A stretch of DNA of 64,000 bases from Nesterenkonia sp. Act20 (GTDB lineage: Bacteria; Actinomycetota; Actinomycetes; Actinomycetales; Micrococcaceae). The notes below the pieces were generated by a model. The model searched no databases, was not told the DNA's origin, and was given only the letters and a program-made list of their open reading frames with translations. Positions 22,135 through 63,016 of this stretch are shown here, one piece after another. A program made the translations under genes and the position numbers. The stretch lies in assembly GCF_019173455.1 (NCBI RefSeq), contig NZ_JADPQH010000001.1, positions 1,268,391 through 1,332,390 of the forward strand, read 5' to 3'. Every line of letters starts with the position of its first letter. The first letter of the stretch is position 1.

Positions 22135-22288
22135 GGAACTGCTCCGTTCAATGCGGTCCTTGGGGCTGAGCCGCGCGTGAACGTCGCTGCCGGTCAGAGG
22201 AGCTCCGGCGTTGAATCCTGTACGGCCCCGTCCTGAGGACTGGGTTTAAGGGCCCGCACTGGTGTGTGGCCCGCGCTTGCCACGTCGA

Positions 22289-22397
22289 TCACCGATGCTC
22301 GGTGATAGCCGCAGCCAGGTCGTCACCCGGGGCACCCCACCGCGAACTGGAGGGTTGCCGGCCAGCAAACCGGGGTTTTGCGCTGGCACTCTTGACC
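22289..22397 (-). ncRNA. SAM-IV riboswitch in metY-metX leader
   Basis: Reverse complement reads GGUCAAGAGUGCCAGCGCAAAACCCCGGUUUGCUGGCCGGCAACCCUCCAGUUCGCGGUGGGGUGCCCCGGGUGACGACCUGGCUGCGGCUAUCACCGAGCAUCGGUGA. This matches the actinobacterial SAM-IV consensus (AGUGCCAGCG...CCCCGG.UUGCUGGCCGGCAACCCUCC...GCGGUGGGGUGCCCCGGGUGA.GACC) nearly base for base; located ~155 nt upstream of metY. Confidence 0.75.
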
Positions 22398-22461
22398 TAG
22401 GGATAAGTCTGCATCGCGGAACGCCGCAGTGCAAGTGCACCCCCTCCTGCGACCCTCCCGC

Positions 22462-22531
22462 GAAAAAATCGTAGACCTCTAGCAAGTCGTAGGGCTATAG
22501 CTCGACGACAACGCGAAAGCTCTACGATTTC
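22462..22531. repeat. Palindromic A-tract/T-tract repeat element, copy A (partly degenerate)
   Basis: gaaaaaatcgtagacctctagcaagtcgtagggctatagctcgacgacaacgcgaaagctctacgatttc; left outer arm intact; 16 nt upstream of lipoprotein ORF1. Confidence 0.85.
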
Positions 22532-22546
22532 TGCCATCCTGGGACG

Positions 22547-22963
22547 ATGCAGCACGAAATCCGTTCGCTGGGCGCAGCCCTCCCGCTGGGCGCGATCTTC
22601 GTCCTCGGCCTCCTGGGCTGTGGTTCAGAACCGAGCACCGCCGATGCGCCCGAGGGCCTCGTCACTCGCGAGACCGACGACGACGGCGGCGACTCAGCCA
22701 TGCTCCAGGGCACCGTCACCCAGTTGGAGGGCTGCTTCTACATCGAGGACGCCCACCCCGAGGGCGAGCTGTGGGTGGCGGTGTTCCCCTCGGATATCGT
22801 CGCCGAACCCTCGGCTGGGGACGGGTTCTCCCTGAACGGGCAGGACTACAACGACGGCGACCAGAGCACCGTCGGAGGCAGCCGCGCCGTCGAGGCGGAC
22901 TACCCAGCGCCCGAGGAATGTGACGAGGAGGCTCCGCAGTGGCAGGTCCATCCGGAGGGCTGA
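22547..22963 (+). CDS. Small secreted lipoprotein, unknown function (paralog 1)
   Basis: 138 aa; signal peptide with lipobox LLGC; conserved blocks DAPEG, GCFY, VAVFP, GxGF..GxDYxDGD..VGGS, PEECDE..QW shared with the next ORF. Confidence 0.6.
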   Translation: MQHEIRSLGAALPLGAIFVLGLLGCGSEPSTADAPEGLVTRETDDDGGDSAMLQGTVTQLEGCFYIEDAHPEGELWVAVFPSDIVAEPSAGDGFSLNGQDYNDGDQSTVGGSRAVEADYPAPEECDEEAPQWQVHPEG

Positions 22964-22964
22964 T

Positions 22965-23405
22965 GTGAGCATCAAAGGTCCAGACCGTGCACGTCGCCGA
23001 CTCGCCGCAGCCGCGCTCCTGGGCGCAGCACTCGGCGCATCGCTGACCGGATGCGCGACAGATCTGCAGGACCCCGATGCACCAGAAGGCGTGCCGAACT
23101 ACATCGTCGACGAAGAGGCCGGTGCCGACGCCGCGCTGGCGGGGCGCGTGGCAGAGATCGATGGCTGTTTCTACGTCCAGGGCCCGGCCCCAGAGCGAAT
23201 TCTCACCCTCGCAGTTTTCCCTGCTCGCGAAGTCACAGACGCGTCGGAGGGGTCAGGATTTGCGTACCTGGGAGAGGACTATGCCGATGGCGACGCCATC
23301 ACCGTCGGCGGAAGCATGTCCGGGTCGACCCTCTACGCCGTTCCCGAGGCGTGTGACGAGGACGTCCAACAGTGGAGGGTCGCCCCGTCGACCCCGGCCC
23401 CCTGA
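22965..23405 (+). CDS. Small secreted lipoprotein, unknown function (paralog 2)
   Basis: GTG start 2 nt after the ORF1 stop, with GGAGGG 5 nt upstream (the track ORF begins at an earlier GTG, 22920); lipobox LTGC, RRR in the n-region; same conserved blocks as paralog 1. Confidence 0.6.
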   Translation: MSIKGPDRARRRLAAAALLGAALGASLTGCATDLQDPDAPEGVPNYIVDEEAGADAALAGRVAEIDGCFYVQGPAPERILTLAVFPAREVTDASEGSGFAYLGEDYADGDAITVGGSMSGSTLYAVPEACDEDVQQWRVAPSTPAP

Positions 23406-23406
23406 C

Positions 23407-23478
23407 GAAAAATCGTAGAGCTATCGCGTTGTCGTAGAGCTATAGCCCCACGATTCGCTAGAGCCCTACGATTTTTTC
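23407..23478. repeat. Palindromic A-tract/T-tract repeat element, copy B (partly degenerate)
   Basis: gaaaaatcgtagagctatcgcgttgtcgtagagctatagccccacgattcgctagagccctacgatttttt; starts 2 nt after the ORF2 stop; right outer arm intact; G-rich right flank mirrors the C-rich left flank of copy A. Confidence 0.85.
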
Positions 23479-23542
23479 GCGAGGGGGGGGCGACGGGGGT
23501 GACGCGGGAGGGCGGGACGTCGCTGGCCTACACTCATCTCTC

Positions 23543-27178: not shown

Positions 27179-27270
27179 CAGGAGGCGTGCCAGAGCGGCC
27201 GAATGGGCTTCACTGCTAATGAAGTGTCCGCCTCAAAGCGGACCGGGGGTTCAAATCCCCCCGCCTCCGC
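27179..27270 (+). tRNA. tRNA-Ser (anticodon GCU), class II with long variable arm, CCA encoded
   Basis: ggaggcgtgccagagcggccgaatgggcttcactGCTaatgaagtgtccgcctcaaagcggaccgggggttcaaatccccccgcctccgcca: 7-bp acceptor stem ggaggcg/cgcctcc, anticodon loop cuGCUaa, T-arm gggggTTCaaatccccc. Confidence 0.85.
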
Positions 27271-27277
27271 CACGTGA

Positions 27278-30918: not shown

Positions 30919-31282
30919 CCCTCACGAGAAACTTTTCATTGCATCGGGCAACTGCCTGAAGTCCCGCCACGGCAGCGATGCAGGCGCGCACACTCCCCCG
31001 TGAGGCGTCATTTTCGCGGTGAACGGCACCGCACACCTGTTGACCGTCGAGTTTTGTTCAAGCTAGCGTCGAACCAAATCAAGGGTGCCGCTCACGTGTT
31101 TTCACTTGTCAGTGACACTCTCAGTCCACCCAGGGCTGGTCCTGGGAATCTTTTGTGTCCTCGATCCATCGAAGATCTGAAGATTTCAGTCGATTCCGCG
31201 ACAGATGCCTGTCCCGGAGTGCAGCCACTCCAGCTCACCATCGACCAGGTCTGATCACACCTGCGCATGGAGGTACCAACGG

Positions 31283-32719
31283 ATGGATATTCTGACGACG
31301 GGCGGCACACTCGCCCTGGTGATCGCTCTGCTGGTGGCCGCGGTGGTGATCGGCGCCGTGGTGCTGCTGATGATGCGGGCCTGGACCAAAGTCGCCCGGG
31401 CCGATGAGGCACTCGTGGTCACCGGCAAGTCCTCCCGGTCCGATGTGCCGGGTTCGCGACCCAAACAGGTCATCGTCAACGGACGAGCCATGGTCAACCC
31501 GATCCGACAGCGGCACGAGATCATCTCGCTGCGCTCCCGGCAGGTCCTGATGACGGTCACCGCGCAGAGTCACGACAACGTGACGATCAACGCCGAGGCC
31601 GTGGCGCTGGTCAAGATCGGCAGCGCGGACGAGGACGTCAAGGCAGCCTCGGAGCGCTTCGCCTCCCAGGACGACGCCGTGGTCGAGTACACCCAGGACC
31701 AGCTCGAAGGTGCTCTCCGTGGGCTGATGGCCCAGCAGACCGTCATCCAGCTGATGCGCGACCGACAGAAGTTCTCCGATGAGATCTCCAAGTCGATCTC
31801 CCCCGAGCTGCTCACCCAGGGCCTCCTGCTGGACTCCTTCCAGATCCGTGAGATCACTGACGATTCGGGGTACATCTCCTCCCTGGGCGCTCCGGAGATC
31901 GAAGCCAAGCGCCAGGCCGCCGAGATCGCCGCGACGAATGCCGAGCGTGCGATCGCCAAGGAGCGGATCTCCAACAGCGAGCAGAACCTGGTCGAGGAGA
32001 CCGAGTACGACTCGAACAAGGCCGCTGCGGCTTCGCGAGTCGGTCAGGCACGAGCTCAGGCCGAGCAGGCGGAGGCCCTGGCCGGGGAGAAGGCTCGGCA
32101 GGAGGTCCTCGGACAGCGCGCGGAGAACCGCCAGGCTGAGCTCGACGCCGAGGTGAAGCGTGTCGCCGACGCTGATCTCTACAAGCAGCAGAAGCGCGCC
32201 GACGCCGAGGCCTACGACCGCACCAAGGCCGCCGAGGCGGAGGCACTGGTCGCCGAATCAGAGGCACGCGCGCGCCTCCAGCGCTCTGAGGCTGAGGCCA
32301 CCGCCATACGTGCCGAGGGCGAGGCGAAGGCTTCTGCAATCCGTGCCGAGGCTGAGGCGCTGCGCGAGAACCAGGAAGCCGTATTGGCCCGTGAGGCCCT
32401 CTCCGTGCTCCCCCAGCTGATGGAATCCTTCGCAGCCGGCTATGCCAACGTCGGATCCGTGACGCTCATCGGTGGCAGCGGCGAATCGGGTGCCGCGAAG
32501 CACTTCGACGGTGAGTCCTCGGTCGCCCTGGCAGGAGTCTTCAAGAGCGTCGAGGCCACCACCGGGATCGATCTCGGGTCGATTCTGCAGTCGAAGGCCC
32601 AGGGAACGGCGATCGGTGAGGCACTGGCCGAGTCCAGTTCCGGCATCGGCACCGGCACCGGCACCGGCACCGGCACCGGCACCGGCACCAAGGAAGCGGA
32701 GAGCACACAGAACGAGTAG
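31283..32719 (+). CDS. Flotillin-like SPFH/band-7 membrane protein (YqiK/FloT-like) with (GT)7 tail
   Basis: Start at internal ATG MDILTTGG of track ORF 31205; N-terminal TM helix, SPFH domain, long A/E-rich coiled-coil (EA repeats), C-terminal GTGTGTGTGTGTGT. Confidence 0.75.
   Translation: MDILTTGGTLALVIALLVAAVVIGAVVLLMMRAWTKVARADEALVVTGKSSRSDVPGSRPKQVIVNGRAMVNPIRQRHEIISLRSRQVLMTVTAQSHDNVTINAEAVALVKIGSADEDVKAASERFASQDDAVVEYTQDQLEGALRGLMAQQTVIQLMRDRQKFSDEISKSISPELLTQGLLLDSFQIREITDDSGYISSLGAPEIEAKRQAAEIAATNAERAIAKERISNSEQNLVEETEYDSNKAAAASRVGQARAQAEQAEALAGEKARQEVLGQRAENRQAELDAEVKRVADADLYKQQKRADAEAYDRTKAAEAEALVAESEARARLQRSEAEATAIRAEGEAKASAIRAEAEALRENQEAVLAREALSVLPQLMESFAAGYANVGSVTLIGGSGESGAAKHFDGESSVALAGVFKSVEATTGIDLGSILQSKAQGTAIGEALAESSSGIGTGTGTGTGTGTGTKEAESTQNE
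32648..32689. repeat. Hexanucleotide microsatellite (ggcacc)x7 inside the flotillin 3' end
   Basis: Read directly; in-frame, encodes (Gly-Thr)7. Confidence 0.9.
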
Positions 32720-40016: not shown

Positions 40017-40040
40017 GGCTTCCCCGAGGGGCAGACCTGT

Positions 40041-41003
40041 TTAGCCGCCGATGATCTGTCGGCGAAATTCGCCCGGCGAGACACCGTACTCATGCTTGAA
40101 TGCACGGCTGAAGCTCGACGCGTCCGGGTAGCCCCAGCGGGCCGCCACCGCGCTCACTGATCGACGCGACTGTGCCGGGTCACCGAGTTCTATGCGACAG
40201 CGCTCCAGCCGACGACGACGGATCCACTCGCTGATCGTCGTTCCCTCCTGCGCAAAGACGCCCTGCAGATAGCGCAGTGAGACATGCAGGGCCCGCGCCA
40301 CAGCTTCGACCCCGAGGCCGGGGTCGCTCAGGTGGTCGTCGATATGTCTGACCGCCTCCAGGTAGACCACGTCCCTGGTGGGAACATCTGAGGTGGGCCT
40401 GAAGCGCGAGAGCAGCGTCGCCTGGACCAGCTGCAACACTGCCGAAGCCGCACGCGGATCCGGGGCCATCTCCCCCTTCTGCAGCTGATCGTCAAGGCTC
40501 CCCAGCAGCGAAGATGTCAGGGCTCCCAACCCCGCACTTCCTGGGATCCGCTGAGCCACCACCTCTCGCGCCTGTTCGGCGGAGAGACCGAGATGCTCCA
40601 CTGCGATCTGCACGACGAACATTCGGTAGGCGCCATCGAAGACGAGGTCATAGGGTCGGCGAGTGTCATAGATGACGAGGTCTCCTGGTGAGAGCAGGGC
40701 CTCGCGTCCATCCTGTCGCGTGAGTGAACTCCCCTCGACCTGCAGAGCGAACTTGAAGACTCCTGGGTCCCCTGCGGCGATCGTCTGCCGACTTCGACGC
40801 ACTGTCACGGCATCCCCGCCCACCCCGGCCACGCTCAATGAGCCGAGAGCCAGCCCGGTGAGAGAGCCGTGGAACTGAGCAGGGTGCTCCGTCCTGGCAT
40901 CGAGCGGGACGAAAGCGGTGTTCACGGCGTGGCGCCACGCTTCGAAGCGCTCACCAGGCGCCAGCGGGTCGGGGTCGAAGGACACCTGCCCCGTCGTCAT
41001 CAT
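40041..41003 (-). CDS. AraC/XylS-family transcriptional regulator (FeaR-like)
   Basis: C-terminal double HTH (AVAARWGYPDASSFSRAFKHEYGVSPGEFRR); start taken at MMTTGQ (the track ORF extends to 41093, so the exact start is uncertain). Confidence 0.7.
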   Translation of the reverse strand: MMTTGQVSFDPDPLAPGERFEAWRHAVNTAFVPLDARTEHPAQFHGSLTGLALGSLSVAGVGGDAVTVRRSRQTIAAGDPGVFKFALQVEGSSLTRQDGREALLSPGDLVIYDTRRPYDLVFDGAYRMFVVQIAVEHLGLSAEQAREVVAQRIPGSAGLGALTSSLLGSLDDQLQKGEMAPDPRAASAVLQLVQATLLSRFRPTSDVPTRDVVYLEAVRHIDDHLSDPGLGVEAVARALHVSLRYLQGVFAQEGTTISEWIRRRRLERCRIELGDPAQSRRSVSAVAARWGYPDASSFSRAFKHEYGVSPGEFRRQIIGG

Positions 41004-41186
41004 GCTTGCCCACCGGCCTCTTTCCTGCTGATCTGCATGCTCCCAGTCTTCCACCTTATTGTGACCCGAGACACAATCATGCGCATGGTGCACAGGTCCG
41101 TGCGTCTGAGATCAAGGCGGGTGCCTGATCTGCGGAGATGCTGGTCTCCTCACCGCAGGACGGCGATTCAAGGAGACGAGAAGACG

Positions 41187-42710
41187 ATGGATGCACCCCG
41201 GACAAGCGAATACATCGTGATCGGCGCAGGGTCAGCTGGCTCGGCGATCACTCGGCGCCTGCTCGATGCCGGACACAGCGTGCACGTGATCGAGGCTGGC
41301 GGCCAGGATGAGGACCCCAACATCCACAGCCCCCAAGGCTGGCCCCTGCTCATGCAGGGACCGTCGGACTGGGCACTGACCACTGTGCCTCAGGTGCATG
41401 CGGACAATCGCAGCATCGCCTGGCCGCGCGGCAAGGTGTTGGGAGGGTCAGGCTCGCTCAACGGCATGATCTATATCCGTGGTCACCGTTCGGACTACGA
41501 CAAGTGGGCCGCTGCAGGATGCGAGGGCTGGGCGTGGGAGGACCTGCTGCCACTGTTCAGGCGTTCGGAAGACCACGAAGACGGAGCCTCCGAGTTCCAC
41601 GGCGCCGGCGGACCGCTGCACGTGGAGAAGATCGTGCACCGCCACGCGAGCTCCGAAGCGTTCGTCGAGGCGGCAGGAAGCGTCGGAATCCCCGAGACCC
41701 AGGACTTCAACGGCGAGCAGATGTCCGGAGCCGGGTTCAACCATACGACCACTAAGGACGGGAAGCGGCACAGCCCCTGGCGCGCGTTCATCCAACCGAT
41801 CCTGGGGCACGAGCGGCTCACCGTCACCACTGACGCCATGGTGCACCGGATCACCCACGAATCCGGGCAAGCCACCGGGGTGGAGTACAGCACCGCGTCT
41901 GGGGCTCACATCGCCCGCGCTGAGGCGGAGATCATCCTCTGCGGCGGAGCAATCGGCTCCCCCTCGATCCTGCAACGCTCCGGCATCGGTGATCCGTCTG
42001 ATCTTCGCCAGGCGGGCATCGATTCGGCGCTGGAGCTTTCCGGCGTCGGCAAGAACCTGCAGGATCATGTGCTTGCAAGCGTCATCTACGAGGCCCCCGA
42101 GCCGCTTGCCGAGGGACGGCACAATCTGCTGGAGGCGCAGCTCTTCGCGCACAGTCGACAGACCGACGAGGAGGCACCCGACATCCAGCCGCTCTTCATG
42201 CATTTCCCGTATCCCACCGACGGCGGAGAGGTGCCCGCAGCTGGCTTCACCATCAACGCCGGGATCGTCCGTCCGCGCTCCCGCGGGACGCTGCGGGTGA
42301 CCAGCTCCGATCCAAAGGCCTCTCCGCTGCTGGATCCGAATCTGCTGGCCGAGGAGTATGACCTGGAGGCTCTCTGTGACGCGATCGAGCTCTGCCGCGA
42401 AATCGGCGAACAGGATGCTCTAGCCCCCTATCGCAGAGCCGACTTCAACCCTGCCGGACCGTTGAAGACCCGCGACCAGGTCCGCGACCACGCCCGGGCC
42501 ATGGCGGGGACGTACCACCACCAGGCCGGCACATGCCGGATGGGCGTGGACGACCTCTCGGTGGTTGACCCCCAGCTGCGTGTGCGCGGAGTGACCGGCC
42601 TGCGCGTGGCCGACGCCTCGATCATGCCCGCACTGCCCAGCGGCAACACCAATGCCCCGTCGATCATGATCGGCGAGAAGGCCGCCGACCTGCTGCTGCA
42701 GAGTCGCTGA
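41187..42710 (+). CDS. GMC-family FAD oxidoreductase (choline/alcohol dehydrogenase-like)
   Basis: Start at MDAPRTSEYIVIGAGSAGS (ADP-binding bab motif) with AGGAGACG upstream; the track ORF start at 40869 is an over-extension. Confidence 0.8.
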   Translation: MDAPRTSEYIVIGAGSAGSAITRRLLDAGHSVHVIEAGGQDEDPNIHSPQGWPLLMQGPSDWALTTVPQVHADNRSIAWPRGKVLGGSGSLNGMIYIRGHRSDYDKWAAAGCEGWAWEDLLPLFRRSEDHEDGASEFHGAGGPLHVEKIVHRHASSEAFVEAAGSVGIPETQDFNGEQMSGAGFNHTTTKDGKRHSPWRAFIQPILGHERLTVTTDAMVHRITHESGQATGVEYSTASGAHIARAEAEIILCGGAIGSPSILQRSGIGDPSDLRQAGIDSALELSGVGKNLQDHVLASVIYEAPEPLAEGRHNLLEAQLFAHSRQTDEEAPDIQPLFMHFPYPTDGGEVPAAGFTINAGIVRPRSRGTLRVTSSDPKASPLLDPNLLAEEYDLEALCDAIELCREIGEQDALAPYRRADFNPAGPLKTRDQVRDHARAMAGTYHHQAGTCRMGVDDLSVVDPQLRVRGVTGLRVADASIMPALPSGNTNAPSIMIGEKAADLLLQSR

Positions 42711-42753
42711 ACATCTTCCTCGATCACCACCGCTGACCCTTTAGGAGAACACC

Positions 42754-44151: not shown

Positions 44152-44172
44152 GCAGTCTCCCCCGCCGCCCCC

Positions 44173-44247
44173 GCAAAAAAATCGTAGACCTCTAGCATGT
44201 CGTAGAGCTATAGCTCTACGACATGGCCGGAGGTCTACGATTTTTTG
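44173..44247. repeat. Palindromic A-tract/T-tract repeat element, copy C (near-perfect); bidirectional terminator-like
   Basis: gcaaaaaaatcgtagacctctagcatgtcgtagagctatagctctacgacatggccggaggtctacgattttttgc; outer 18-bp and inner 12-bp inverted repeats; between convergent ALDH and GH13 genes. Confidence 0.85.
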
Positions 44248-44264
44248 CCTCAGGAGTCAGCTAC

Positions 44265-45920
44265 CTACGCTATCCACACAGTCGCGTCAGGGTTCAAAAG
44301 ACCATCGGTCAACGCATCAGGGACCGACATCAAGATCACTTCACCCGCTGGCAGCGCAGCAGGCGCAGTGGAGAGGTTTGCCACCACTGTCACCTCACCC
44401 ACGCGGAACTCGAGAACGTCCTCGAGGGAATCGCTTTCCCCCCTCCCCGTCCCCCACGTCAGGTCAGATCCAGCGAGGGCGTAGTCACGCCGCATAGCAA
44501 GCGTTGTTCGGTAGAAGGAGAGAGTCGAATCCGACTCCTTCTCCTGAAGATCAACGGCGAGTGCCCCGAAGCTCTCGGGCTGCGGCAGCCAAGTGCGCGG
44601 CGATGAAGAAAACCCGAAAGCCACGTCATCGGCGCGCCAAGGAAGGGGCACACGACAACCATCGCGACCCCGGATGGCATGGCCAGATCGCTCCCACACC
44701 GGATCCTGACGGACCTCATCGGGAAGCATCGTGGCCTCCGGGAGGCCGAGTTCTTCCCCTTGGTAGAGGTAAGCGGAACCCGGCAGGGCTAGCATTATGG
44801 CGGTCGCGGCGCGTGCACGGCGCAGGCCGAGGGCATCGTCAGGTTGAGGATCCTCTGGACCCACACCTGCTTCGAGGTTCACCGGGCCCTGGTATCCGAA
44901 GCGGCTCGCATGTCGCATCACATCGTGGTTGGAGAGCACCCAGGTAGTCGGGGCGCCCACCGCTTCATTCGCAGCAAGGGATGTGGCGATGGTCTCACGG
45001 ATCTCAGCGCAGTCCCATGGCAGAGACAGGTAGGCGAAGTTGAAGGCCTGGTGCATCTCCCCCTCACGGACTATGCGCGCAGTCCGCTCCGGGGGGAGCC
45101 ATGCCTCTGCACATAGGATTCTGGTGCCGGAATAGCTGTCGAGAATCTCTCGCCAATGGCGGAAGATGTCGTGGATGCCCTCCTGGTCCCACATCGGTGG
45201 CATGAGGCCATCTATGGGCTCGACCACACCGTGAGCCGCGTGCGGCCAGCTGGGGAGGCCCGGAGCCTTCACCATGGCGTCGCATACATCGACTCTGAAC
45301 CCGTCGACGTCGCGGTCCAGCCAGAATCTCAGCGTCGTGTCGAACTCGGACCGCACCCGGGGGTTGTCCCAGTTCCAATCGGGCTGACCAGAGTCGAAGA
45401 GATGCAGATACCACTGACCCGGGGTCCCATCGGCTTCGGTGACCCGTGTCCACGCGGGGCCGCCGAACATGCTCTCCCAATCATTCGGTGGAAGCGACCC
45501 CTCGGGCCCCGTCCCCTCTTTGAAATGGAAGAGGGACCGCTCAGGGCTCCCCGGCGCCGCGGCGAGTGCCTCTTTGAACAGCACGTGCTCCCAGGAGCAG
45601 TGGTTGGGCACAAGGTCAACGATTACTCTCAGTCCCAGCTCATGAGCCCGGTCGACCATCTCATCGAAGTCAGCGAGGGTTCCGTACCTTTCGTCGACGT
45701 CGCGGTAGTCGGCCACGTCGTAGCCCCCGTCACGTTGCGGGGACGGATAGAAGGGGGACAACCACACGGCGTCCGCCCCCAGATCCGCGACATGGCTGAG
45801 TCGCTGGGAGATTCCTCTCAGATCGCCGGTTCCGTCGCCGTCGCTGTCGGCGAACGAGCGGGGGTAGACCTGGTAGATGACGGCCGTGCGCCACCATTCG
45901 GAGTCGTTGATGTCGATCAT
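44265..45920 (-). CDS. GH13 alpha-glucosidase / oligo-1,6-glucosidase-like
   Basis: 551 aa; GH13 regions (DLVPNHCS, GFRVDVCD, catalytic EAW..). Confidence 0.8.
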   Translation of the reverse strand: MIDINDSEWWRTAVIYQVYPRSFADSDGDGTGDLRGISQRLSHVADLGADAVWLSPFYPSPQRDGGYDVADYRDVDERYGTLADFDEMVDRAHELGLRVIVDLVPNHCSWEHVLFKEALAAAPGSPERSLFHFKEGTGPEGSLPPNDWESMFGGPAWTRVTEADGTPGQWYLHLFDSGQPDWNWDNPRVRSEFDTTLRFWLDRDVDGFRVDVCDAMVKAPGLPSWPHAAHGVVEPIDGLMPPMWDQEGIHDIFRHWREILDSYSGTRILCAEAWLPPERTARIVREGEMHQAFNFAYLSLPWDCAEIRETIATSLAANEAVGAPTTWVLSNHDVMRHASRFGYQGPVNLEAGVGPEDPQPDDALGLRRARAATAIMLALPGSAYLYQGEELGLPEATMLPDEVRQDPVWERSGHAIRGRDGCRVPLPWRADDVAFGFSSSPRTWLPQPESFGALAVDLQEKESDSTLSFYRTTLAMRRDYALAGSDLTWGTGRGESDSLEDVLEFRVGEVTVVANLSTAPAALPAGEVILMSVPDALTDGLLNPDATVWIA

Positions 45921-46777
45921 GCAGTGAGGGTTCCCTTTCGGTACAAGTCAGGTCGTCGGTCGGCAAGCAGACCGTTGTGCGGGGAGATTGATTTGTCCTC
46001 GGCGAGATGAAGCGAGAGTGACGCACGGGCGACCGGGCGGGCCCCCGAAGCGTCTGGAACATCGGCCACAACCCAACCGTATTGACTCACGATCACGGTG
46101 GCTTCGTTCCACGATTGACCCCGCTCAATCCCGGCTCGATCACAGCAGGCGATAAAGACGCCGTTGGTCCGCGCCGCCGCTTGAGCTGCGATCACCTCGG
46201 CAGCACGCTCGGCCACGGGATGCTCTCCCGAGGGCCAATTCGTGGGGACAGCGATGAGATCAGCCCCTGCGAGAGCGAGGAGCCGCGGCATCTCGGGAAA
46301 CTCCATGTCGTAGCAGATCAACAGGCCTATCCTGCCGTGCACCGTGTCAACCACGGGAGGCAGATCATTCCCCGGCTCGAATACCTGGGTCTCGCGATCC
46401 CAGAGATGCGTCTTTCGATAGACCGCGCTCACACCGTCGGCGTCGATCAACGCCGCACTGTTGTAGAGCACCTCACCCCCGTCCTCGCAGAACCCCACGA
46501 CGACAACCAGCGAAGTACCTCCAAGCGCCGCGGAAGTCTCGGCGAAGAAGGGGTGATCCGTGGTCATTGCGACGCTGCGAGCCTCCGCCCGGCTCCTGAA
46601 CACATAGCCCGACGTGGACAGTTCGGGCAGCACGAGAACATCCGTTCCGTCGGAACAGGCTTCCGCGACTGCCTCGCCGATCAGGGTGAGATTTCCTTCG
46701 AGGTCACCCACCATGGGTGTGAGCTGGTGACACGCGACATTCGTCAGCTTCCGCTCAAGAGCAGCACCCGGACTCAT
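45917..46777 (-). CDS. Carbon-nitrogen hydrolase family (nitrilase/amidase superfamily)
   Basis: 286 aa; E-K-C triad context (LPELSTSGY, RKTHLW, LLICYDMEFPE); ATGA overlap with glucosidase start. Confidence 0.75.
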   Translation of the reverse strand: MSPGAALERKLTNVACHQLTPMVGDLEGNLTLIGEAVAEACSDGTDVLVLPELSTSGYVFRSRAEARSVAMTTDHPFFAETSAALGGTSLVVVVGFCEDGGEVLYNSAALIDADGVSAVYRKTHLWDRETQVFEPGNDLPPVVDTVHGRIGLLICYDMEFPEMPRLLALAGADLIAVPTNWPSGEHPVAERAAEVIAAQAAARTNGVFIACCDRAGIERGQSWNEATVIVSQYGWVVADVPDASGARPVARASLSLHLAEDKSISPHNGLLADRRPDLYRKGTLTA

Positions 46778-47580
46778 TTGACGGCCCCTTCGGTGATCCC
46801 AGAGATGAGGCGACGCTGCAGCACCACATAGGCGCTGACGATCGGCAGCGCCACGAGGACTGCCGCGGCAGCTGTGATGTTCGGGTCGGAAGCACGAGCG
46901 GCGCCAGAGAAGAAGGACAAAGCTAGCGGCGCCGTCTGGACGGCTTCGTTCTGGGGAACAAGGATCAAGGCGAGGAGGAATTCATTCCAGGTGAAGAGGA
47001 ACAAGATGGTCACCAAAGTAGCGATTGCCGGTCCCGCGATGGGCATCAGCACACTCCTGAAGATGATGAACCTCGACGCCCCGTCCATCCGCGCCGCTTC
47101 CAAGAGTTCCTTGGGCACGGACGCGAAGAACGCACGCATCCAGAACACTCCTAACGGTACGGAGAGGCCGATCTGGGGCAATATGAGAGCGAGATATGTG
47201 TCGATGAGATTCCAGTCTGCCAACATCTGATAGAGCGGCAAGACGGTGACCTCATACGGAAGCACCAACCCCAGCAGCATCGCGCCCAGCATGATCTTGA
47301 CCCCGGGGACCCTCATGTGGGCCATGGCATAGCCAGCCAAACAGGCCACGGCGACGGTCACAGCGACGACGGCGGTGGTCACCAAGGCGCTTGAGGCCAG
47401 TGCCGATCCGAAGCCGCCTCTCGTCCACGCCTCGGCGTAGTTCGCGAACGTGAGAGACCCAGAGGAGTCCGATCCACGGAGCGAGGAAATCACAATTGAG
47501 AGGAACGGGAAGACGGCGATGGCCGTTGCGATGAGGAGGAGAGTATGGGTGATGACAACTTCGCTGCGTGCAACCTTCAT
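46774..47580 (-). CDS. ABC transporter permease (carbohydrate, MalG-like)
   Basis: 268 aa, 6 TM, EAA loop (EAARMDGASRFIIFRSVLMP). Confidence 0.8.
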   Translation of the reverse strand: MKVARSEVVITHTLLLIATAIAVFPFLSIVISSLRGSDSSGSLTFANYAEAWTRGGFGSALASSALVTTAVVAVTVAVACLAGYAMAHMRVPGVKIMLGAMLLGLVLPYEVTVLPLYQMLADWNLIDTYLALILPQIGLSVPLGVFWMRAFFASVPKELLEAARMDGASRFIIFRSVLMPIAGPAIATLVTILFLFTWNEFLLALILVPQNEAVQTAPLALSFFSGAARASDPNITAAAAVLVALPIVSAYVVLQRRLISGITEGAVK

Positions 47581-48566
47581 GAGTTTCTCTCCTCCTTGCC
47601 GGGGGCCTGCGCCGGCTCCGGCGTCGAGCGTGGAGCTCGGTCGGGCGACTCTCGCAGCGCAAGCTGAACGATGCCGACGATCACCAAGGTGAGCACGGTA
47701 AGCACAACCGCCAGCGCCGAAGCCTCCCCGAGCAATCTGTTCTGGAACGCGTCCTGGTAGATGTAGACGCTGGGGACGGCCGTAGAGGTGCCGGGGCCGC
47801 CCTGAGTGGTGTTCCAGATCAGATCGAAGTTCCTCAGCGCGAACGTGATGGTGAGAATCAGTGCGATAGATATCTGCGGGCGCAGGGATGGCAGAGTGAT
47901 GCTGACGAACTCTCGGATGGGACCCGCGCCGTCAAGCCGCGCAGCCTCGTACAGCGAACGGTCGATCGAGGCGATGCCGGAGAGGAAGAGCAGCATGCAC
48001 AACCCGTACTCCACCCAGGTTCCTATCCCGCCGATGGCTGGCAGCGCAGTGCCGAAATCTCCGAGCCAGGCACGCGTGATCGACCCAAGACCGACAGCGC
48101 GCAGAGTCTCGTTGAGCGGTCCATCGATCGCGAGAATATCTCGCCACGAGACAGCAACGACCACGCTCGAAAGGATCTGCGGGAGGAACAACAGCGCCCT
48201 GAACCAGGTCAACCCGTAGATCCTGATCCGAGACATGAGCCCCGCAAGAAAGAGACCAATGACCACAGGAAGGGCCGCATAGAAGAACAGCAGCACCAAG
48301 GAGTGGCTGAGCGCCTCTCTCATGGCCGGATTGGTGAAGACCTCCACGTAGTTCGAGAAGCCAACCGGAGTTGCCGCGGTGATGCCGTCCCAGCGGTAGA
48401 AGGAGATTCGCACCGACTGCACGATCGGGACGATCACAAACACGATGAAGAACGCCAGCGCGGGCGCGACATAGAACAACGAGGACCAGGAGTATCTGGA
48501 TGAACCCTGCCTGCGTCGCTTCGAAGAAGCCTCGGGTCTTTTCGCTTCGGCCCTCGACACGGTCAT
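47577..48566 (-). CDS. ABC transporter permease (carbohydrate, MalF-like)
   Basis: 329 aa, EAA loop (EAARLDGAGPIREFVSITLP). Confidence 0.8.
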   Translation of the reverse strand: MTVSRAEAKRPEASSKRRRQGSSRYSWSSLFYVAPALAFFIVFVIVPIVQSVRISFYRWDGITAATPVGFSNYVEVFTNPAMREALSHSLVLLFFYAALPVVIGLFLAGLMSRIRIYGLTWFRALLFLPQILSSVVVAVSWRDILAIDGPLNETLRAVGLGSITRAWLGDFGTALPAIGGIGTWVEYGLCMLLFLSGIASIDRSLYEAARLDGAGPIREFVSITLPSLRPQISIALILTITFALRNFDLIWNTTQGGPGTSTAVPSVYIYQDAFQNRLLGEASALAVVLTVLTLVIVGIVQLALRESPDRAPRSTPEPAQAPGKEERNS

Positions 48567-49918
48567 CCGTGCGCCTCGGCCCAGACCTCTTGGACCTGCT
48601 CGGTGAATTCCTCCGGGCTCACCCGTCCGGCCATCACTTCCTGCAACGTTCCACCCATCTGATTCAGCATGTCGGTGGTCGCCCAGTCGTAATATCCGAC
48701 CTGGGTTCCCGCTTCGATCGTCTCCTCGAGAGCCGTCAGCGTCTGTTCCTCCAACGGGTCGTCAGCTGTGACTCCGTCGGTCACAACAGGCAGTCGACCG
48801 GTGTCGAGAATCTGCTGGCCCACCTCCGGAGAGTGCAAGGTCTCCAGAAAAGCGATCGCGGGGAGTTCCGCGTCGGTGCTGCTGCTGATGTGCCATGGCG
48901 ATGCCGTGGCACCGACGCCACCCGAGGTGAGTGACCCGAAACCGAACTCTTCGGAGTTCAGCGGGGCACCGTTCCATGATCCACCGACGAAGTAGACCCC
49001 CTCACCGTCGGCGAACCGAGCAATGGCGTCTTGGTTGCTGATGCCGTCATAGCCGGGTCCGAAGTATCCCGCATCCGCCCAAGCTGCCATCGTCTGAGCC
49101 GCCTCAGCATTTCCTTCCGTCTCGAACGTTGCGTCTGGATCGCCGCCGATCCACGCTGCAATATCCGCTGGATCCTGAGTGGTCGCAGCGATGTCGGAGA
49201 AGATATGCGTTGCGGCGTACTGGTCGGAATTGCCGAGCATGATCGCCTGCTCTCCAGCCTCGTCTGCCGCTGCGGCGCCAGCTTCCAGATCCTCGACGGA
49301 ATCCGGAGCCGTGAGGTTCAGTTCCTCGAGCTTTTCCTTGTTGTAGTAGATGCCCTGCACTTCGCTGATGGGTGACATGCCGTAGAGGGTTCCACTGCCG
49401 AAAGCTGATCCCTCGTCGTTCCATCGTGCCGGATCGAGGGTGCTTGCTCCGGTGCCTTCTTCCCAGCCGTAGACGTCGGCCACATCGTCAAGTGGGCGGA
49501 CGAGGTCTCCCTTCACAAGTGCTCCGTCGACTGCGTGTCCGATGTTGCCCTGGAACAGGTCAGGCGGGGAGCTGCTCGCTGCAGCATTCACTACGGTGGC
49601 GATGAGATCATCGAAGCTCTTGTACGTCACGTCAACGGTCACGTTCGGGTATTCGTCCTCGAATGCTGGGACGACCTCTTCCATCAGCCCTTCTTCGGCC
49701 TGGTCGGCCCAGACTGACAGCGTGACATCCCCAAGATCCGCGATCTGTTCAGGCGTCACTTCCTCGGTGATGGACTGGCGATCTTCATCTGATGATTCTG
49801 CGGCAGCACCGCTGCCAGGGGCCCCACATCCGGAGAGTGCGAGCAGCGCTACCACCGACGTGGTGAGCGGCATAGACATGAATCGTGCACGGTGACCTGC
49901 TCGAACGCTGTGTCTCAT
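48563..49918 (-). CDS. ABC transporter solute-binding lipoprotein (family 1, sugar)
   Basis: 451 aa; lipobox LSGC; SBP_bac_1 fold. Confidence 0.75.
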   Translation of the reverse strand: MRHSVRAGHRARFMSMPLTTSVVALLALSGCGAPGSGAAAESSDEDRQSITEEVTPEQIADLGDVTLSVWADQAEEGLMEEVVPAFEDEYPNVTVDVTYKSFDDLIATVVNAAASSSPPDLFQGNIGHAVDGALVKGDLVRPLDDVADVYGWEEGTGASTLDPARWNDEGSAFGSGTLYGMSPISEVQGIYYNKEKLEELNLTAPDSVEDLEAGAAAADEAGEQAIMLGNSDQYAATHIFSDIAATTQDPADIAAWIGGDPDATFETEGNAEAAQTMAAWADAGYFGPGYDGISNQDAIARFADGEGVYFVGGSWNGAPLNSEEFGFGSLTSGGVGATASPWHISSSTDAELPAIAFLETLHSPEVGQQILDTGRLPVVTDGVTADDPLEEQTLTALEETIEAGTQVGYYDWATTDMLNQMGGTLQEVMAGRVSPEEFTEQVQEVWAEAHG

Positions 49919-51261
49919 GACTGTTCTCCTGTGGTGTTTCCGACGGTTTCAAATGAGGCGAGACGCATGGTCGCGGTTGCCTCGTGCGCAGACATGCCCT
50001 CGCTGTTGGAGATCACTGCGACGGCCTCGGCCAAGGCTGGCGTCGCCTCCCTAGTGATGCGCTGGTAGGTGAGCGGCTTGAGGAACCTCGAAACGGAGAG
50101 TCCAGCGCTGTGCTTCGCGCCACCAGCAGTAGGGAGCGTGTGGTTCGTGCCCGCCATGCCCTTGTCAGAATAGGCAACGGTACTCCAATGGCCCATGAAG
50201 AGTGAGCCATAGTTGGTGAGGTGGTCGTGGTACCATGCGTCATCTGCGGTCTGGACCTCCAAATGTTCCGGCGCCAGCTCGTCCATGACTAGAACTGCGT
50301 CTTCCGGCGACTCGACGACGACTACCGAACCGAAATCTCTCCAGGCAGGTCCGCAGATGTCACGCGTGGATAGCTCCAGGATCTGACGTTCGACCGCCGC
50401 GATGACCTGCTGCCCCAACGACCTGGATGTCGTCACGAGTGCCGCAGGAGAGTTGGGGCCATGCTCTGCCTGTCCAAGCAGGTCAGCGGCGACTATCTCT
50501 GCGTCGGCGGTCTCATCAGCAATCACCGCGACCTCGGAGGGCCCAGCCAAGAGATCGATGGCGACCGCGCCGAAGAGCTGCCTCTTGGCTTCAGCGACGT
50601 AGGCATTGCCCGCACCGACGATCATGTCAACCGGCGCCTCTCCCAGGAGTCCGAATGCCATCCCCGCGAGGGCCTGCACGCCACCCAGCAGGTAGAGATG
50701 ATCCACCCCGGAGAGGTGTGCGGCATAGCTCACCGCATCGTTGGCCCGTCCGTCCGGCTGCGGCGGAGTGCAACCCAGGACGGAAGGCACTTGGGCGGCC
50801 TTGGCGACTCCAATGCTCATCAGCGCACTCGCAGTGAGCGGAAAGCGTCCGGCAGGAAGGTAGGCCCCGACGCTATTGATCGGAATGTAGCGCTGTCCCA
50901 CAGTAAGTCCTGGGACCATCTCCGCTTCGAAGTCGAAGAGGTGTTCGCGCTGAAGGGCCGCGAACTGTCGGGTTCGTTCGGAGCCAAGCTCGATCGCGGC
51001 CCGCAGCTCCGGGTTCAGTCGATCGCCGCTCGAGGCAATCGAGGCGGCATCCAGTTCGAACGTCGATAGCTCAGAGCCATCGAGATCCTTCGCGTATTTG
51101 CGAATCGCCTGCATGCCGTGACGTTCGATATCGAGCAGCATCTCGCTGACTCTGGCGGCGACCGCAGGGTCGCGTTGGGCGGGGGGCGCGTCGACTTTCG
51201 GCGCTTTGAGCTCATCAAAGCGCTCACCATGTACGGACCTGAACTGTGGGCTAATTCTCAT
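49915..51261 (-). CDS. Histidinol-dehydrogenase-family NAD-dependent dehydrogenase (HisD paralog, non-histidine context)
   Basis: HisD fold with Zn-ligand regions (GQAEHGPNS, HLEV..); probable start MRISPQF (track ORF starts at 51297); first gene of the sugar ABC operon. Confidence 0.65.
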   Translation of the reverse strand: MRISPQFRSVHGERFDELKAPKVDAPPAQRDPAVAARVSEMLLDIERHGMQAIRKYAKDLDGSELSTFELDAASIASSGDRLNPELRAAIELGSERTRQFAALQREHLFDFEAEMVPGLTVGQRYIPINSVGAYLPAGRFPLTASALMSIGVAKAAQVPSVLGCTPPQPDGRANDAVSYAAHLSGVDHLYLLGGVQALAGMAFGLLGEAPVDMIVGAGNAYVAEAKRQLFGAVAIDLLAGPSEVAVIADETADAEIVAADLLGQAEHGPNSPAALVTTSRSLGQQVIAAVERQILELSTRDICGPAWRDFGSVVVVESPEDAVLVMDELAPEHLEVQTADDAWYHDHLTNYGSLFMGHWSTVAYSDKGMAGTNHTLPTAGGAKHSAGLSVSRFLKPLTYQRITREATPALAEAVAVISNSEGMSAHEATATMRLASFETVGNTTGEQS

Positions 51262-51333
51262 GAACCCGACTATTCCGGGTTGGAAGATGAAGGACAACTG
51301 CAGGTTTTCAACGGATTCCTATAGCCTGAAGCT

Positions 51334-52233
51334 ATGTCTTTGAACCAGATGCGGGCTTTTCTCATGGTCGTCTCCATGGGGAGCTTCTCCGGGGCAGCAA
51401 CAGAGATGCAGATGGCGCAGCCTTCGGTGTCTGGAATGATCAAGAGAATCGAACAGGCCTACGGCGTGCGGCTTTTCACCAGGGGGCCGCGACGCCTCGT
51501 CTTGACCAACGCAGGCCAGGAGCTTCTCCCGTATGCGAAAGCGGCCGTGGAAGCGGCGGACAACGCCGACGTCGCGCTTCGATCCCTCACGTCTCTCGCT
51601 GGCGGGGTCGCCACCTTCGGACTGCTGCGCAACGCAAACTACTACTTCCTCTCACGCCTGCTCGAAACATTCACGACGCGGTTTCCGGATGTGCGCCTGA
51701 GGGTCTTCGGCCTCAACTCAGCCGAAGTTGCAGAAGCAGTAGCGGCTGGCGATCTGGAAGCAGGCCTCGTCGTGCTGCCGATCGACTCAGAGGGCTTGCA
51801 GGTGACGCCTCTGATGAGAGACGAAGTCTTTTACGCCTCGGCAGACCCCTCGCGCACGGCAAGCCCCGTCACGATCCGAGACCTCTCGCAGGCCGATCTG
51901 ATCCTCTACGACGCGCATTACGGCTGGCGAGATCCTACACGGCGGCAACTCGCAGAGCGCGCCAACCTCGAAGGGGTGACTCTCACGGCTCGAATCGAAG
52001 TGGAACACGTTGAATCTGCGCTGGACATGGTGCAGCACGGACACGGCGACACGATCATCTCAGGGGCAGTCAGAGCAGGGAAAGCCTTCCCCCCATCGAT
52101 CCATACCGCCCCATTTGCTGAACCGATGTATGACACGATCGCCCTTGTTCAGAGACCCGGAGCGGTACTCTCACCCGCCACGCGTGAACTCACCAGACTC
52201 GCTCAACGGATGCTGCTCCAACCGAATTTCTAA
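51334..52233 (+). CDS. LysR-family transcriptional regulator
   Basis: 299 aa; N-terminal LysR HTH (MRAFLMVVSMGSFSGAATEMQMAQPSVS); divergent from the ABC operon. Confidence 0.8.
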   Translation: MSLNQMRAFLMVVSMGSFSGAATEMQMAQPSVSGMIKRIEQAYGVRLFTRGPRRLVLTNAGQELLPYAKAAVEAADNADVALRSLTSLAGGVATFGLLRNANYYFLSRLLETFTTRFPDVRLRVFGLNSAEVAEAVAAGDLEAGLVVLPIDSEGLQVTPLMRDEVFYASADPSRTASPVTIRDLSQADLILYDAHYGWRDPTRRQLAERANLEGVTLTARIEVEHVESALDMVQHGHGDTIISGAVRAGKAFPPSIHTAPFAEPMYDTIALVQRPGAVLSPATRELTRLAQRMLLQPNF

Positions 52234-52334
52234 GCGCTGTCAGTTGTGGCCTCGCGATCCACCGCAGGAAGGTGCCGGAGCGGAGGTCCGTCGCCTGTCG
52301 GGAATCAGCGCAATTCTCAAGAACCGTCTCCCCC

Positions 52335-52404
52335 GAAAACATCGTAGACCTCCGGCGATGTCGTAGAGCTATAGCTCTACGATTCGCTAGAGGTCTACGA
52401 TTTT
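52335..52404. repeat. Palindromic A-tract/T-tract repeat element, copy D
   Basis: gaaaacatcgtagacctccggcgatgtcgtagagctatagctctacgattcgctagaggtctacgatttt; C-rich left/G-rich right flanks; between convergent LysR and sulfatase genes. Confidence 0.85.
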
Positions 52405-52422
52405 CTCCGGGAGGGGGCGGGG

Positions 52423-62947: not shown

Positions 62948-62988
62948 CGAGCGGGCCCGGGGCGATCAGAGATCACCCCGGGCCCGCT
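62948..62988. terminator. Bidirectional stem-loop between convergent DUF1989 and glpK genes
   Basis: gagcgggcccgggg-cgatcagagatca-ccccgggcccgctc (14-bp perfect stem). Confidence 0.55.
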
Positions 62989-63016
62989 CCACTCACCTGA
63001 ATCAGGTGGCTGCTGA

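Follow-up and report, generated by a model that had tools for sequence, protein, structure and literature searches.

A 64,000-nucleotide (nt) stretch of the genome of Nesterenkonia sp. Act20 (assembly GCF_019173455.1, contig NZ_JADPQH010000001.1, positions 1,268,391 to 1,332,390 of the forward strand; hereafter the window) carries four copies of a quasi-palindromic element with a core of approximately 75 bp. The copies form a true family with one asymmetric consensus, and most of them are located a few tens of nt past stop codons. The explanation we tentatively favour is that the element is a selected hairpin module acting in cis, as a bidirectional terminator and insulator or as a 3′-end hairpin, whose boxes would be read by a protein and which may be prone to breakage and insertion.

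Four copies of one asymmetric element

Each copy runs in the order A-run, outer TCGTAG box, 12-13 nt, inner TCGTAG box, GCTATAGC centre, the mirror image of these parts, and T-run, and the unit measures approximately 100 bp when the C-rich and G-rich flanks are included. An earlier note on the window, made from its letters, had described four copies with this architecture, and all of them were found again. The copies, their outer flanks and the gene blocks (cargo) between them are as follows, with the open reading frames (ORFs) of the first block numbered.

22438..22461, outer flank of A, C-rich and matching the G-rich flank of B as its complement, so that the palindrome is extended
22462..22531, copy A, orientation 1 on the + strand, TCGTAG at 22469 and 22487, CTACGA at 22522
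22547..23405, cargo 1, + strand, two tandem paralogous small lipoprotein genes (ORF1 and ORF2) between A and B
23407..23478, copy B, orientation 1 on the - strand, beginning 1 nt past the ORF2 stop, with the FAD-oxidase start (23543) 64 nt beyond its end
23479..23502, outer flank of B, G-rich
44160..44172, outer flank of C, C-rich, made up of CTCCCCCG-type units whose number differs among genomes
44173..44247, copy C, near-perfect, orientation 1 on the + strand, TCGTAG at 44182 and 44200, CTACGA at 44216 and 44235, centre GCTATAGC
44248..52334, cargo 2, an 8-kb lower-GC sugar islet between C and D
52335..52404, copy D, orientation 1 on the - strand, orthologous to the one copy that N. halotolerans and a metagenome-assembled genome (MAG) each have
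52405..52422, outer flank of D, G-rich

With at most two mismatches, the 15-mer TCGTAGRSCTMTAGC matched 17 times in the window, against 0.21 matches expected from shuffles. Sixteen of the matches lie inside the four elements, four in each in the order + + - -, which agrees with the direct-direct-inverted-inverted cores of the earlier note, and the one further match is unrelated. The central 20-mer occurs four times in the window (0 expected), and a profile built from the four copies and searched over the window with nhmmer at E ≤ 1 returned no fifth copy. Runs of at least six A or six T occur in the window, which has a GC content of 66.5% rather than the approximately 68% estimated earlier, at the four elements exclusively.

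The element had been called a palindrome, and this is correct for its nested inverted boxes; it is nevertheless not a true palindrome, because its polarity is conserved, A and C having one orientation and B and D the other. When 14 oriented copies are aligned without gaps, the asymmetry is kept. The linker between outer and inner box has 3 nt at the left and 4 nt at the right, which leaves a 1-nt bulge, and the pairs 39-73 and 37-75 are usually mismatched. In copy A, the inner right box is degenerate (CGACGA). When A was aligned with the reverse complement of B, the alignment spanned 94 nt including the C-rich flank (inverted repeat I2, 88% complementary), and the G-rich flank of D belongs to an inverted repeat (I1) of 87 nt with 87% complementarity.

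Occurrence in related genomes and databases

One protein encoded in the window is 100% identical to a protein of Act20, and MetY and Aldedh (aldehyde dehydrogenase) have their best matches in Nesterenkonia. The family is not confined to the 64-kb region, since copies are found in related genomes. Species-representative genomes were scanned with the exact central 22-mer, so that the copy counts are lower bounds, and seven loci were obtained, all in the MAG ‘uncultured Nesterenkonia sp. 2-592A-3Z’ (contigs totalling approximately 1.9 Mb), with 1 additional copy within the flanks of these seven loci. Copies are also present in GCA_051262615.1 (locus L008), whereas one degenerate copy was found in GCA_003003175.1 (loci L010-L012) and one copy in N. 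halotolerans (L014). The orthologous loci of the more distant N. sp. LB17, N. lutea and N. sp. CF4.4 and of GCA_039544285.1, 85 kb in all, contained no copy.

The element matched no Rfam family at gathering scores, which within the window are reached by SAM-IV and a tRNA alone, and with E ≤ 10 only sub-threshold hairpins of microRNA type appeared at the element (the best scored 31 bits, where 83 is the gathering score). It was likewise unmatched by blastn against plasmids and phages, and viral and metagenome contigs gave 0 matches to the central 22-mer with Ns and to a generic pattern of the four-box geometry. Our literature search found nothing relevant on the element sequence, on Nesterenkonia repeats or on repetitive extragenic palindromic (REP) sequences in Micrococcaceae, and the preprint on the Act20 genome does not mention repeats. 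The earlier note knew of no named actinobacterial element matching it, and the family accordingly looks undescribed, restricted to a narrow Nesterenkonia clade, and low-copy where a genome was scanned.

Hairpin folding and sequence constraint

When folded as RNA, each copy gives one long hairpin of -28 to -56 kcal/mol (z -2.6 to -11), and when folded as single-stranded DNA (ssDNA), -13 to -34 kcal/mol (z down to -10.9). A single strand is predicted to form a hairpin of approximately 30 bp, and no consistent strand bias in folding energy was seen. The U-runs next to it are U6/U7 in C and U6/U5 in B, and those of D and A are weaker at one side; the T-run of A that faces ORF1 is broken (TTTCTG) in Act20 and in L008 alike. 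A subfamily of the MAG (L002-L004) has AAATTA/TAATTT or GTTTG/CAAA in place of the A/T runs and therefore no U-tract. A contig of a close relative in the Logan assemblies (L009 1-34) breaks off within the element, which suggests that the palindrome breaks short-read assemblies.

Pairing was examined in the 14 oriented copies (alignment A2), and 77.5% of the pair cells were standard pairs, compared with 37-46% when the partners were slid. The covariation score was 0.156 versus 0.116 in shuffles, and none of 500 shuffles reached it. In the helix formed by the A/T runs, AU and UA pairs are swapped, or the whole helix is switched coherently to AAATTA/TAATTT or GTTTG/CAAA, and pair 34-78 alternates between GC and CG. 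The outer stem thus carries compensatory changes, fitting a hairpin.

The four TCGTAG/CTACGA boxes behave differently, as only 2 of their 24 columns are variable compared with 18 of 25 in the other stem and linker positions (Fisher p = 6e-6). This bears out the earlier remark that conservation goes well beyond the needs of a terminator: it is greater than a hairpin requires, specifically in the four hexamer boxes; being constrained beyond pairing, they indicate that something reads the box sequence and not the pairing alone. A role similar to that of DNA uptake sequences was rejected, because TCGTAG is not enriched outside the elements (13 versus 10.6 expected).

The orthologous copy at the locus of the aldehyde dehydrogenase (Aldedh) and sulfatase genes allowed the constraint to be compared with that of neighbouring DNA. 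Only 1-2 of 59 core nt differ among D of Act20, N. halotolerans and the MAG, whereas identity among the same genomes is just 80-82% at third codon positions in the neighbouring Aldedh gene and the intergenic DNA immediately outside the A/T runs is unalignable. Divergence at the synonymous rate would have given approximately 11 differences in the core. Strong purifying selection therefore acts on the orthologous copy, which argues for function over tolerated junk. With three separable signals available, namely hairpin covariation, box constraint and purifying selection on orthologs, a hunt for the binding protein is feasible.

Position relative to genes and the terminator landscape

At 9 of 11 non-orthologous sites the element adjoins at least one gene 3′ end, and the stop codons are typically 17-35 nt away. 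Convergent genes flank five of the 11 sites (C, D, L001a, L002 and L004) and co-directional genes two (B and L001b); a further two adjoin at least one 3′ end, and the remaining two are divergent (A and L005). C and D were rightly placed between convergent genes by the earlier note: C is 21 nt past the stop of Aldedh (+) and 17 nt before that of an alpha-amylase-family gene (-), and D is 101 nt past the stop of a LysR gene (+) and 18 nt before that of the sulfatase gene (-). Only two of the four window copies are at convergent gene ends, because B lies between co-directional genes and A in the promoter region of a divergent pair, where it is 64 nt upstream of the riboswitch 5′ end (SAM-IV) and ends 15 nt before the ATG of ORF1 (22547). 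The single L010 copy is also divergent (the FAD-oxidase start is 41 nt away, SAM-IV 89 nt). The neighbouring genes are unrelated and mostly housekeeping: metY with SAM-IV, FAD oxidase, aldehyde dehydrogenase and sulfatase genes and, further, sdhB, purD/purC, a class I aminoacyl-tRNA synthetase gene, MgtC and an IMPDH-like gene.

The window does not hold more generic terminator-like sites than shuffles lead one to expect. In the convergent gap at ~62949-62990 of the window there is a unique GC-rich perfect hairpin without a T-run, i.e. of the I-shaped terminator type, and N. sp. CF4.4, which does not have the element, carries a unique GC-rich hairpin without a T-run in the gap 3′ of Aldedh (L018 ~11430-11480). 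In Act20, N. halotolerans and the MAG, the same gap holds the element where CF4.4 has this unrelated hairpin. The RNA polymerase of mycobacteria requires a U-tract for intrinsic termination (PMC3993855), so most copies would be strong canonical bidirectional terminators. Like canonical bidirectional terminators, the element has an A-tract, a hairpin and a T-tract between convergent genes. Ordinary terminators, however, are unique sequences with stems of 5-14 bp, whereas the element has a stem of approximately 30 bp and four invariant boxes common to all copies, and some of its copies have no U-tract or are located in promoter regions. With regard to the latter, every CTACGAT holds an outward-facing TANNNT hexamer, and an outward promoter at these hexamers is possible.

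According to the explanation we favour, the RNA of either strand would fold into the hairpin followed by a U-run and act as a factor-independent bidirectional terminator or as a hairpin protecting the 3′ end, and the effect would be that of a transcriptional insulator at gene and islet boundaries. A putative sequence-specific protein, which could be a nuclease, a transposase-like enzyme or an RNA- or DNA-binding factor, would read the TCGTAG/CTACGA boxes in the folded or in the duplex state. Formation of the hairpin or of a cruciform may also make the sites prone to breaks and insertions, and foreign DNA captured at an element would lead to its duplication, so that both new boundaries would stay insulated.

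Several points weigh against this explanation. The shape of a bidirectional terminator, which the earlier note had emphasized, is found in most copies: a stable hairpin with an immediate U-run on both strands is present in the window copies. It is not present in L002-L004 of the MAG, which are without a U-tract, and three copies (A, L005 of the MAG and L010) are located between divergent genes, where a terminator role is not obvious. As ORF1 starts 15 nt after A, this copy cannot terminate efficiently in that direction unless it carries the promoter too. The 30-bp stem and the four invariant boxes far exceed the needs of a terminator, and no protein binding the boxes was identified. Finally, the clade DNA inspected amounts to approximately 0.3 Mb, and most of the loci were picked for carrying the element. 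If the element does terminate in both directions, it would provide a canonical U-tract terminator in a region with few terminator-like sites, and would be useful in annotation and as a genetic part for Micrococcaceae.

Paired copies around inserted gene blocks

Comparison with related genomes, as proposed by the earlier note, revealed that both window pairs bracket segments whose presence varies; that the four copies are two such pairs was absent from that note. At locus 1, Act20 and L008 have A, two paralogous lipoprotein genes and B, whereas L010-L012 (87% MetY identity) has no lipoprotein genes and a single copy, with the FAD-oxidase start on one side and the riboswitch on the other. At locus 2, Act20 has C, the 8-kb islet and D, whereas in N. 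halotolerans (Aldedh 96% identical) and the MAG, Aldedh is followed by sulfatase with one copy between, oriented as D. The empty allele therefore keeps exactly one copy at both loci.

The islet is absent at this locus from N. halotolerans, the MAG, LB17, CF4.4 and N. lutea, and the gap between Aldedh and sulfatase is variable (L014 11399-11538, L015 11405-14266, L016 11402-12806 and L018 11402-12937). In N. halotolerans and the MAG it contains the element alone, in Act20 the sugar islet, and where the element is missing, a carboxylesterase gene (N. lutea and CF4.4) or carboxylesterase, FmdE and DsrE genes (LB17). A homolog of the islet, 75% identical over 6.4 kb and adjoining an IS3-type rve fragment, was found in the unrelated Logan contig SRR22405897 (L017 2691-9054). 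Because this homolog has no element, the islet did not bring the element along, and the possibility that it carried its own copy was ruled out.

The cores differ at 3-7 positions within locus 1, at 1-5 within locus 2 and at 9-16 between the loci. That differences are fewer within pairs than between loci, each copy having its partner as closest relative, indicates, from the sequences of the copies, that at both loci the second copy stems from the resident copy. Duplication took in the element together with its A and T runs and possibly part of the C-rich flank (GTCTCCCCCG). The interior is inverted within each pair, and the orientation is stable among orthologs. Compared with the flipped resident copy, the left linker of C (44197-44199) has three adjacent changes, GAA to ATG, which make it the exact complement of the right linker (44222-44225). 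This is the pattern expected of hairpin-templated mutation, i.e. template switching within the hairpin, and the linker may have arisen in that way.

None of the models considered would yield a pair in which one copy is flipped and the other is not. A central crossover by site-specific recombination was rejected because the left arm of C is opposite in type to the resident left arm, and insertion into the loop followed by completion of half palindromes because both copies retain asymmetric arms. Simple resolution of a cruciform with hairpin-capped ends and fill-in predicts, by our derivation, that both copies are flipped or both unflipped, and a mixture was observed. The polarity of the events is uncertain, since deletion by recombination between near-palindromic copies also leaves a solo copy. 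Nevertheless, two duplications with flipped interior around gene blocks offer a testable handle on how long palindromes shape the insertion of islets.

A third pair, in L001 of the MAG, consists of copies of two different subfamilies around a 443-aa ORF (5297-6628, - strand) without a Pfam match, and because the subfamilies differ, a local duplication was rejected for this pair. The ORF lies between sdhB and a BrkB-family gene, and its C-terminus appears, by eye only, to be of the DUF559/Vsr-like endonuclease type.

Relation to known repeats and alternative explanations

The earlier note had suggested a family similar to REPs or to miniature inverted-repeat transposable elements (MITEs). The repeat family is real and conserved, whereas its low copy number, the pairing of GTAG in the stem and the lack of a target-site duplication qualify that assignment or do not support it. 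REP and REPIN families (E. coli REP-BIME, Pseudomonas REPIN and Stenotrophomonas SMAG; PMC3733652, PMC2817692) are also intergenic hairpin repeats with inverted GTAG/CTAC motifs. It is conceivable, though in our judgment rather unlikely, that the element is a non-autonomous mobile element of this type, in which a transposase similar to the REP-associated tyrosine transposase (RAYT; IS200/IS605 Y1) would recognise and cleave the GTAG boxes of the ssDNA hairpin. Copies would then be found at gene ends because insertions are tolerated there, and any termination would be a by-product. The four GTAG/CTAC motifs are arranged head to head, with boxes in + + - - order, and give a single hairpin of approximately 30 bp in RNA and ssDNA as do head-to-head REP dimers or REPINs (PMC3733652). 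The boxes are specifically conserved, and the location mostly downstream of ORFs, with convergent or co-directional neighbours (9 of 11 non-orthologous sites at a gene 3′ end), is that of REPs. The element further shares with REPs G-T/G-U pairs, subfamilies with compensatory stem changes, here within one genome, and restriction to a clade with patchy presence among species, and the concerted change of GAA to ATG in the linker of C is typical of hairpin-templated mutation in ssDNA.

The differences are nevertheless considerable. A GTAG-REP is defined as a stem-loop of 20-40 bp with an unpaired GTAG tag at one end (PMC3733652), whereas the GTAG of the element is part of the paired invariant hexamer TCGTAG, no unpaired terminal tag exists, and the half-units have no stem-loop of their own. 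Two nested box pairs, A/T runs with the geometry of a terminator and an actinobacterial host also set it apart from REPs, and the text of the 2013 survey (PMC3733652) never names Actinobacteria. REPs usually exceed 100 copies per genome and the element is of order ten, with 7 exact-core matches in the scanned MAG. No transposase was found in the window or beside any inspected copy, and RAYT (Y1 transposase, PF01797) was not among the called genes of the inspected loci, whole genomes not having been searched. The literature likewise yielded only unrelated matches on RAYTs in Actinobacteria. Strong purifying selection on the orthologous copy would be unexpected for a merely tolerated insertion, and new copies arose beside their parent together with cargo insertion and not at distant sites.

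In the case of MITEs, a direct target-site duplication is expected, and the flanks of the element are complementary (A-run/T-run, AAATTA/TAATTT, C-rich/G-rich) rather than direct, so there is no duplication of the MITE type. A parent insertion sequence with the ends of the element was not found in the inspected DNA. In the way it works, the element comes closest to REPs and REPINs and to elements of the Correia type. Correia elements (NEMIS) of Neisseria are inverted-repeat elements of approximately 100-150 bp at gene boundaries, which are reported to act as terminators, to carry outward promoters and to be RNase III substrates and are associated with genome plasticity, and they have TA target duplications, a site for integration host factor (IHF) and hundreds of copies. 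None of the latter three features was seen in the element, and the sequences are unrelated.

In pdif modules of Acinetobacter plasmids and in integron attC sites (R′′-L′′-L′-R′), gene blocks are flanked by oppositely oriented short structured sites, which have a four-box layout and receive their polarity from a conserved extrahelical base or bulge. The element is similar in having four boxes, a polarity given by a bulge, and oppositely oriented copies around gene blocks. In contrast to these systems, it shows no similarity to Xer/dif or attC, has no integrase or cassette array and is scattered at the ends of housekeeping genes, and its empty allele still has a complete copy whose arms are the same, an outcome not accounted for by a central crossover. 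The boxes are TCGTAG/CTACGA and not the RYYYAAC/GTTRRRY of R′′/R′, the copies are single or in pairs 0.9-8 kb apart, and no integron integrase was found in the window. Since the element departs in part from the REP definition and features of MITEs, attC and dif are missing, we classed the element with structured intergenic palindromic repeats. It is a repeat of this class newly seen in an actinobacterium, REP-like and not a REP by definition. Structured repeats of the REP kind have been characterized almost wholly in Proteobacteria, and the element is a compact, well-delimited case in a high-GC actinobacterium.

The resemblance to recombination sites raises an alternative that we consider less likely again than a REP-type mobile element, namely that the element works primarily at the DNA level as a cruciform-prone landing pad or recombination site, whose boxes are read by a nuclease or recombinase and which is regenerated on both sides of an insert. 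Both window pairs bracket segments of variable presence whose empty allele has one copy (L010; N. halotolerans and the MAG), the paired copies have locus-specific variants in common, and the duplicated block comprises the element with its A and T runs. The orientation is opposite within each pair and stable among orthologs, a homolog of the islet exists elsewhere without the element, and the layout of the four boxes resembles R′′-L′′-L′-R′. However, there are two cases only, both found with the element as the starting point, no recombinase or integrase is nearby, and the models of central crossover and half-palindrome completion are contradicted by the types of the arms. Deletion of cargo between near-palindromic copies would leave one copy too, the third pair (L001) consists of different subfamilies, and other indels at these loci or close to them occurred without the element, i.e. 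the COesterase/FmdE/DsrE genes of LB17, CF4.4 and N. lutea and a deletion of AraC and GMC genes in the MAG. As regards this deletion, the MAG (L006 4008-4155) is without the pair of AraC-regulator and GMC-oxidoreductase genes (2.7 kb; 40020-42749 in the window), which is present in Act20, N. halotolerans, LB17, CF4.4 and N. lutea, and there is no element at the junction.

A particular form of this idea, which we regard as improbable, is a cis site for an undescribed mode of islet capture in Actinobacteria: an enzyme specific for structure or sequence would cut the quasi-palindrome, foreign DNA would be joined, and the palindrome would be restored on either side of it, one of the two copies being flipped. 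This recalls the flip/flop hairpin transfer known from the terminal repeats of parvoviruses. If so, insertions would arrive already insulated by bidirectional terminators, and solo copies may mark past insertion or excision.

It is very improbable that the element is a duplex operator array for a dimeric or tetrameric transcription factor, e.g. of the TetR type with an McbR-like half-site, because most copies lie between the stops of unrelated housekeeping genes such as sdhB, purD/purC and those for the aminoacyl-tRNA synthetase, MgtC and the IMPDH-like protein, covariation to different complementary sequences (AAATTA/TAATTT) fits a hairpin and not a fixed operator, and a regulator gene was not identified. 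In favour of an operator, the boxes are both palindromic and invariant, the two or three promoter copies are located beside sulfur-related genes (metY/SAM-IV and, in L005, FMN reductase), and the inner palindrome TAGAG-N6-CTCTA resembles the McbR motif TAGAC-N6-GTCTA (quoted in PMC2723105 and PMC9210681), yet the half-site differs from that of McbR at the fifth base on both sides.

Cargo genes and other features of the window

In cargo 1, ORF1 (22547-22963) and ORF2 (~22980-23405) each encode a signal peptide with a lipobox Cys and have similar C-termini, and neither lipoprotein gave a Pfam match. Cargo 2 encodes, by Pfam, an alpha-amylase-family glucosidase, a CN hydrolase, two ABC permeases, a solute-binding protein and a histidinol-dehydrogenase-like protein on the - strand and a LysR protein on the + strand. 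Its GC content is 0.60-0.63, with 0.68-0.79 at third codon positions (GC3), compared with 0.66-0.70 and a GC3 of 0.81-0.92 outside.

The SAM-IV riboswitch found with Rfam is located upstream of metY (O-acetylhomoserine sulfhydrylase), and this arrangement is conserved in the relative at L010 9735-9868 (+). Further features of the window are a tRNA gene, which adjoins neither an integrase gene nor an element copy, and a short in-frame tandem repeat.

22268-22397, - strand, SAM-IV riboswitch
27181-27272, + strand, tRNA-Ser(GCT)
32640-32687, (CCGGCA)n-like repeat with a 12-nt period, within ORF 31205-32719

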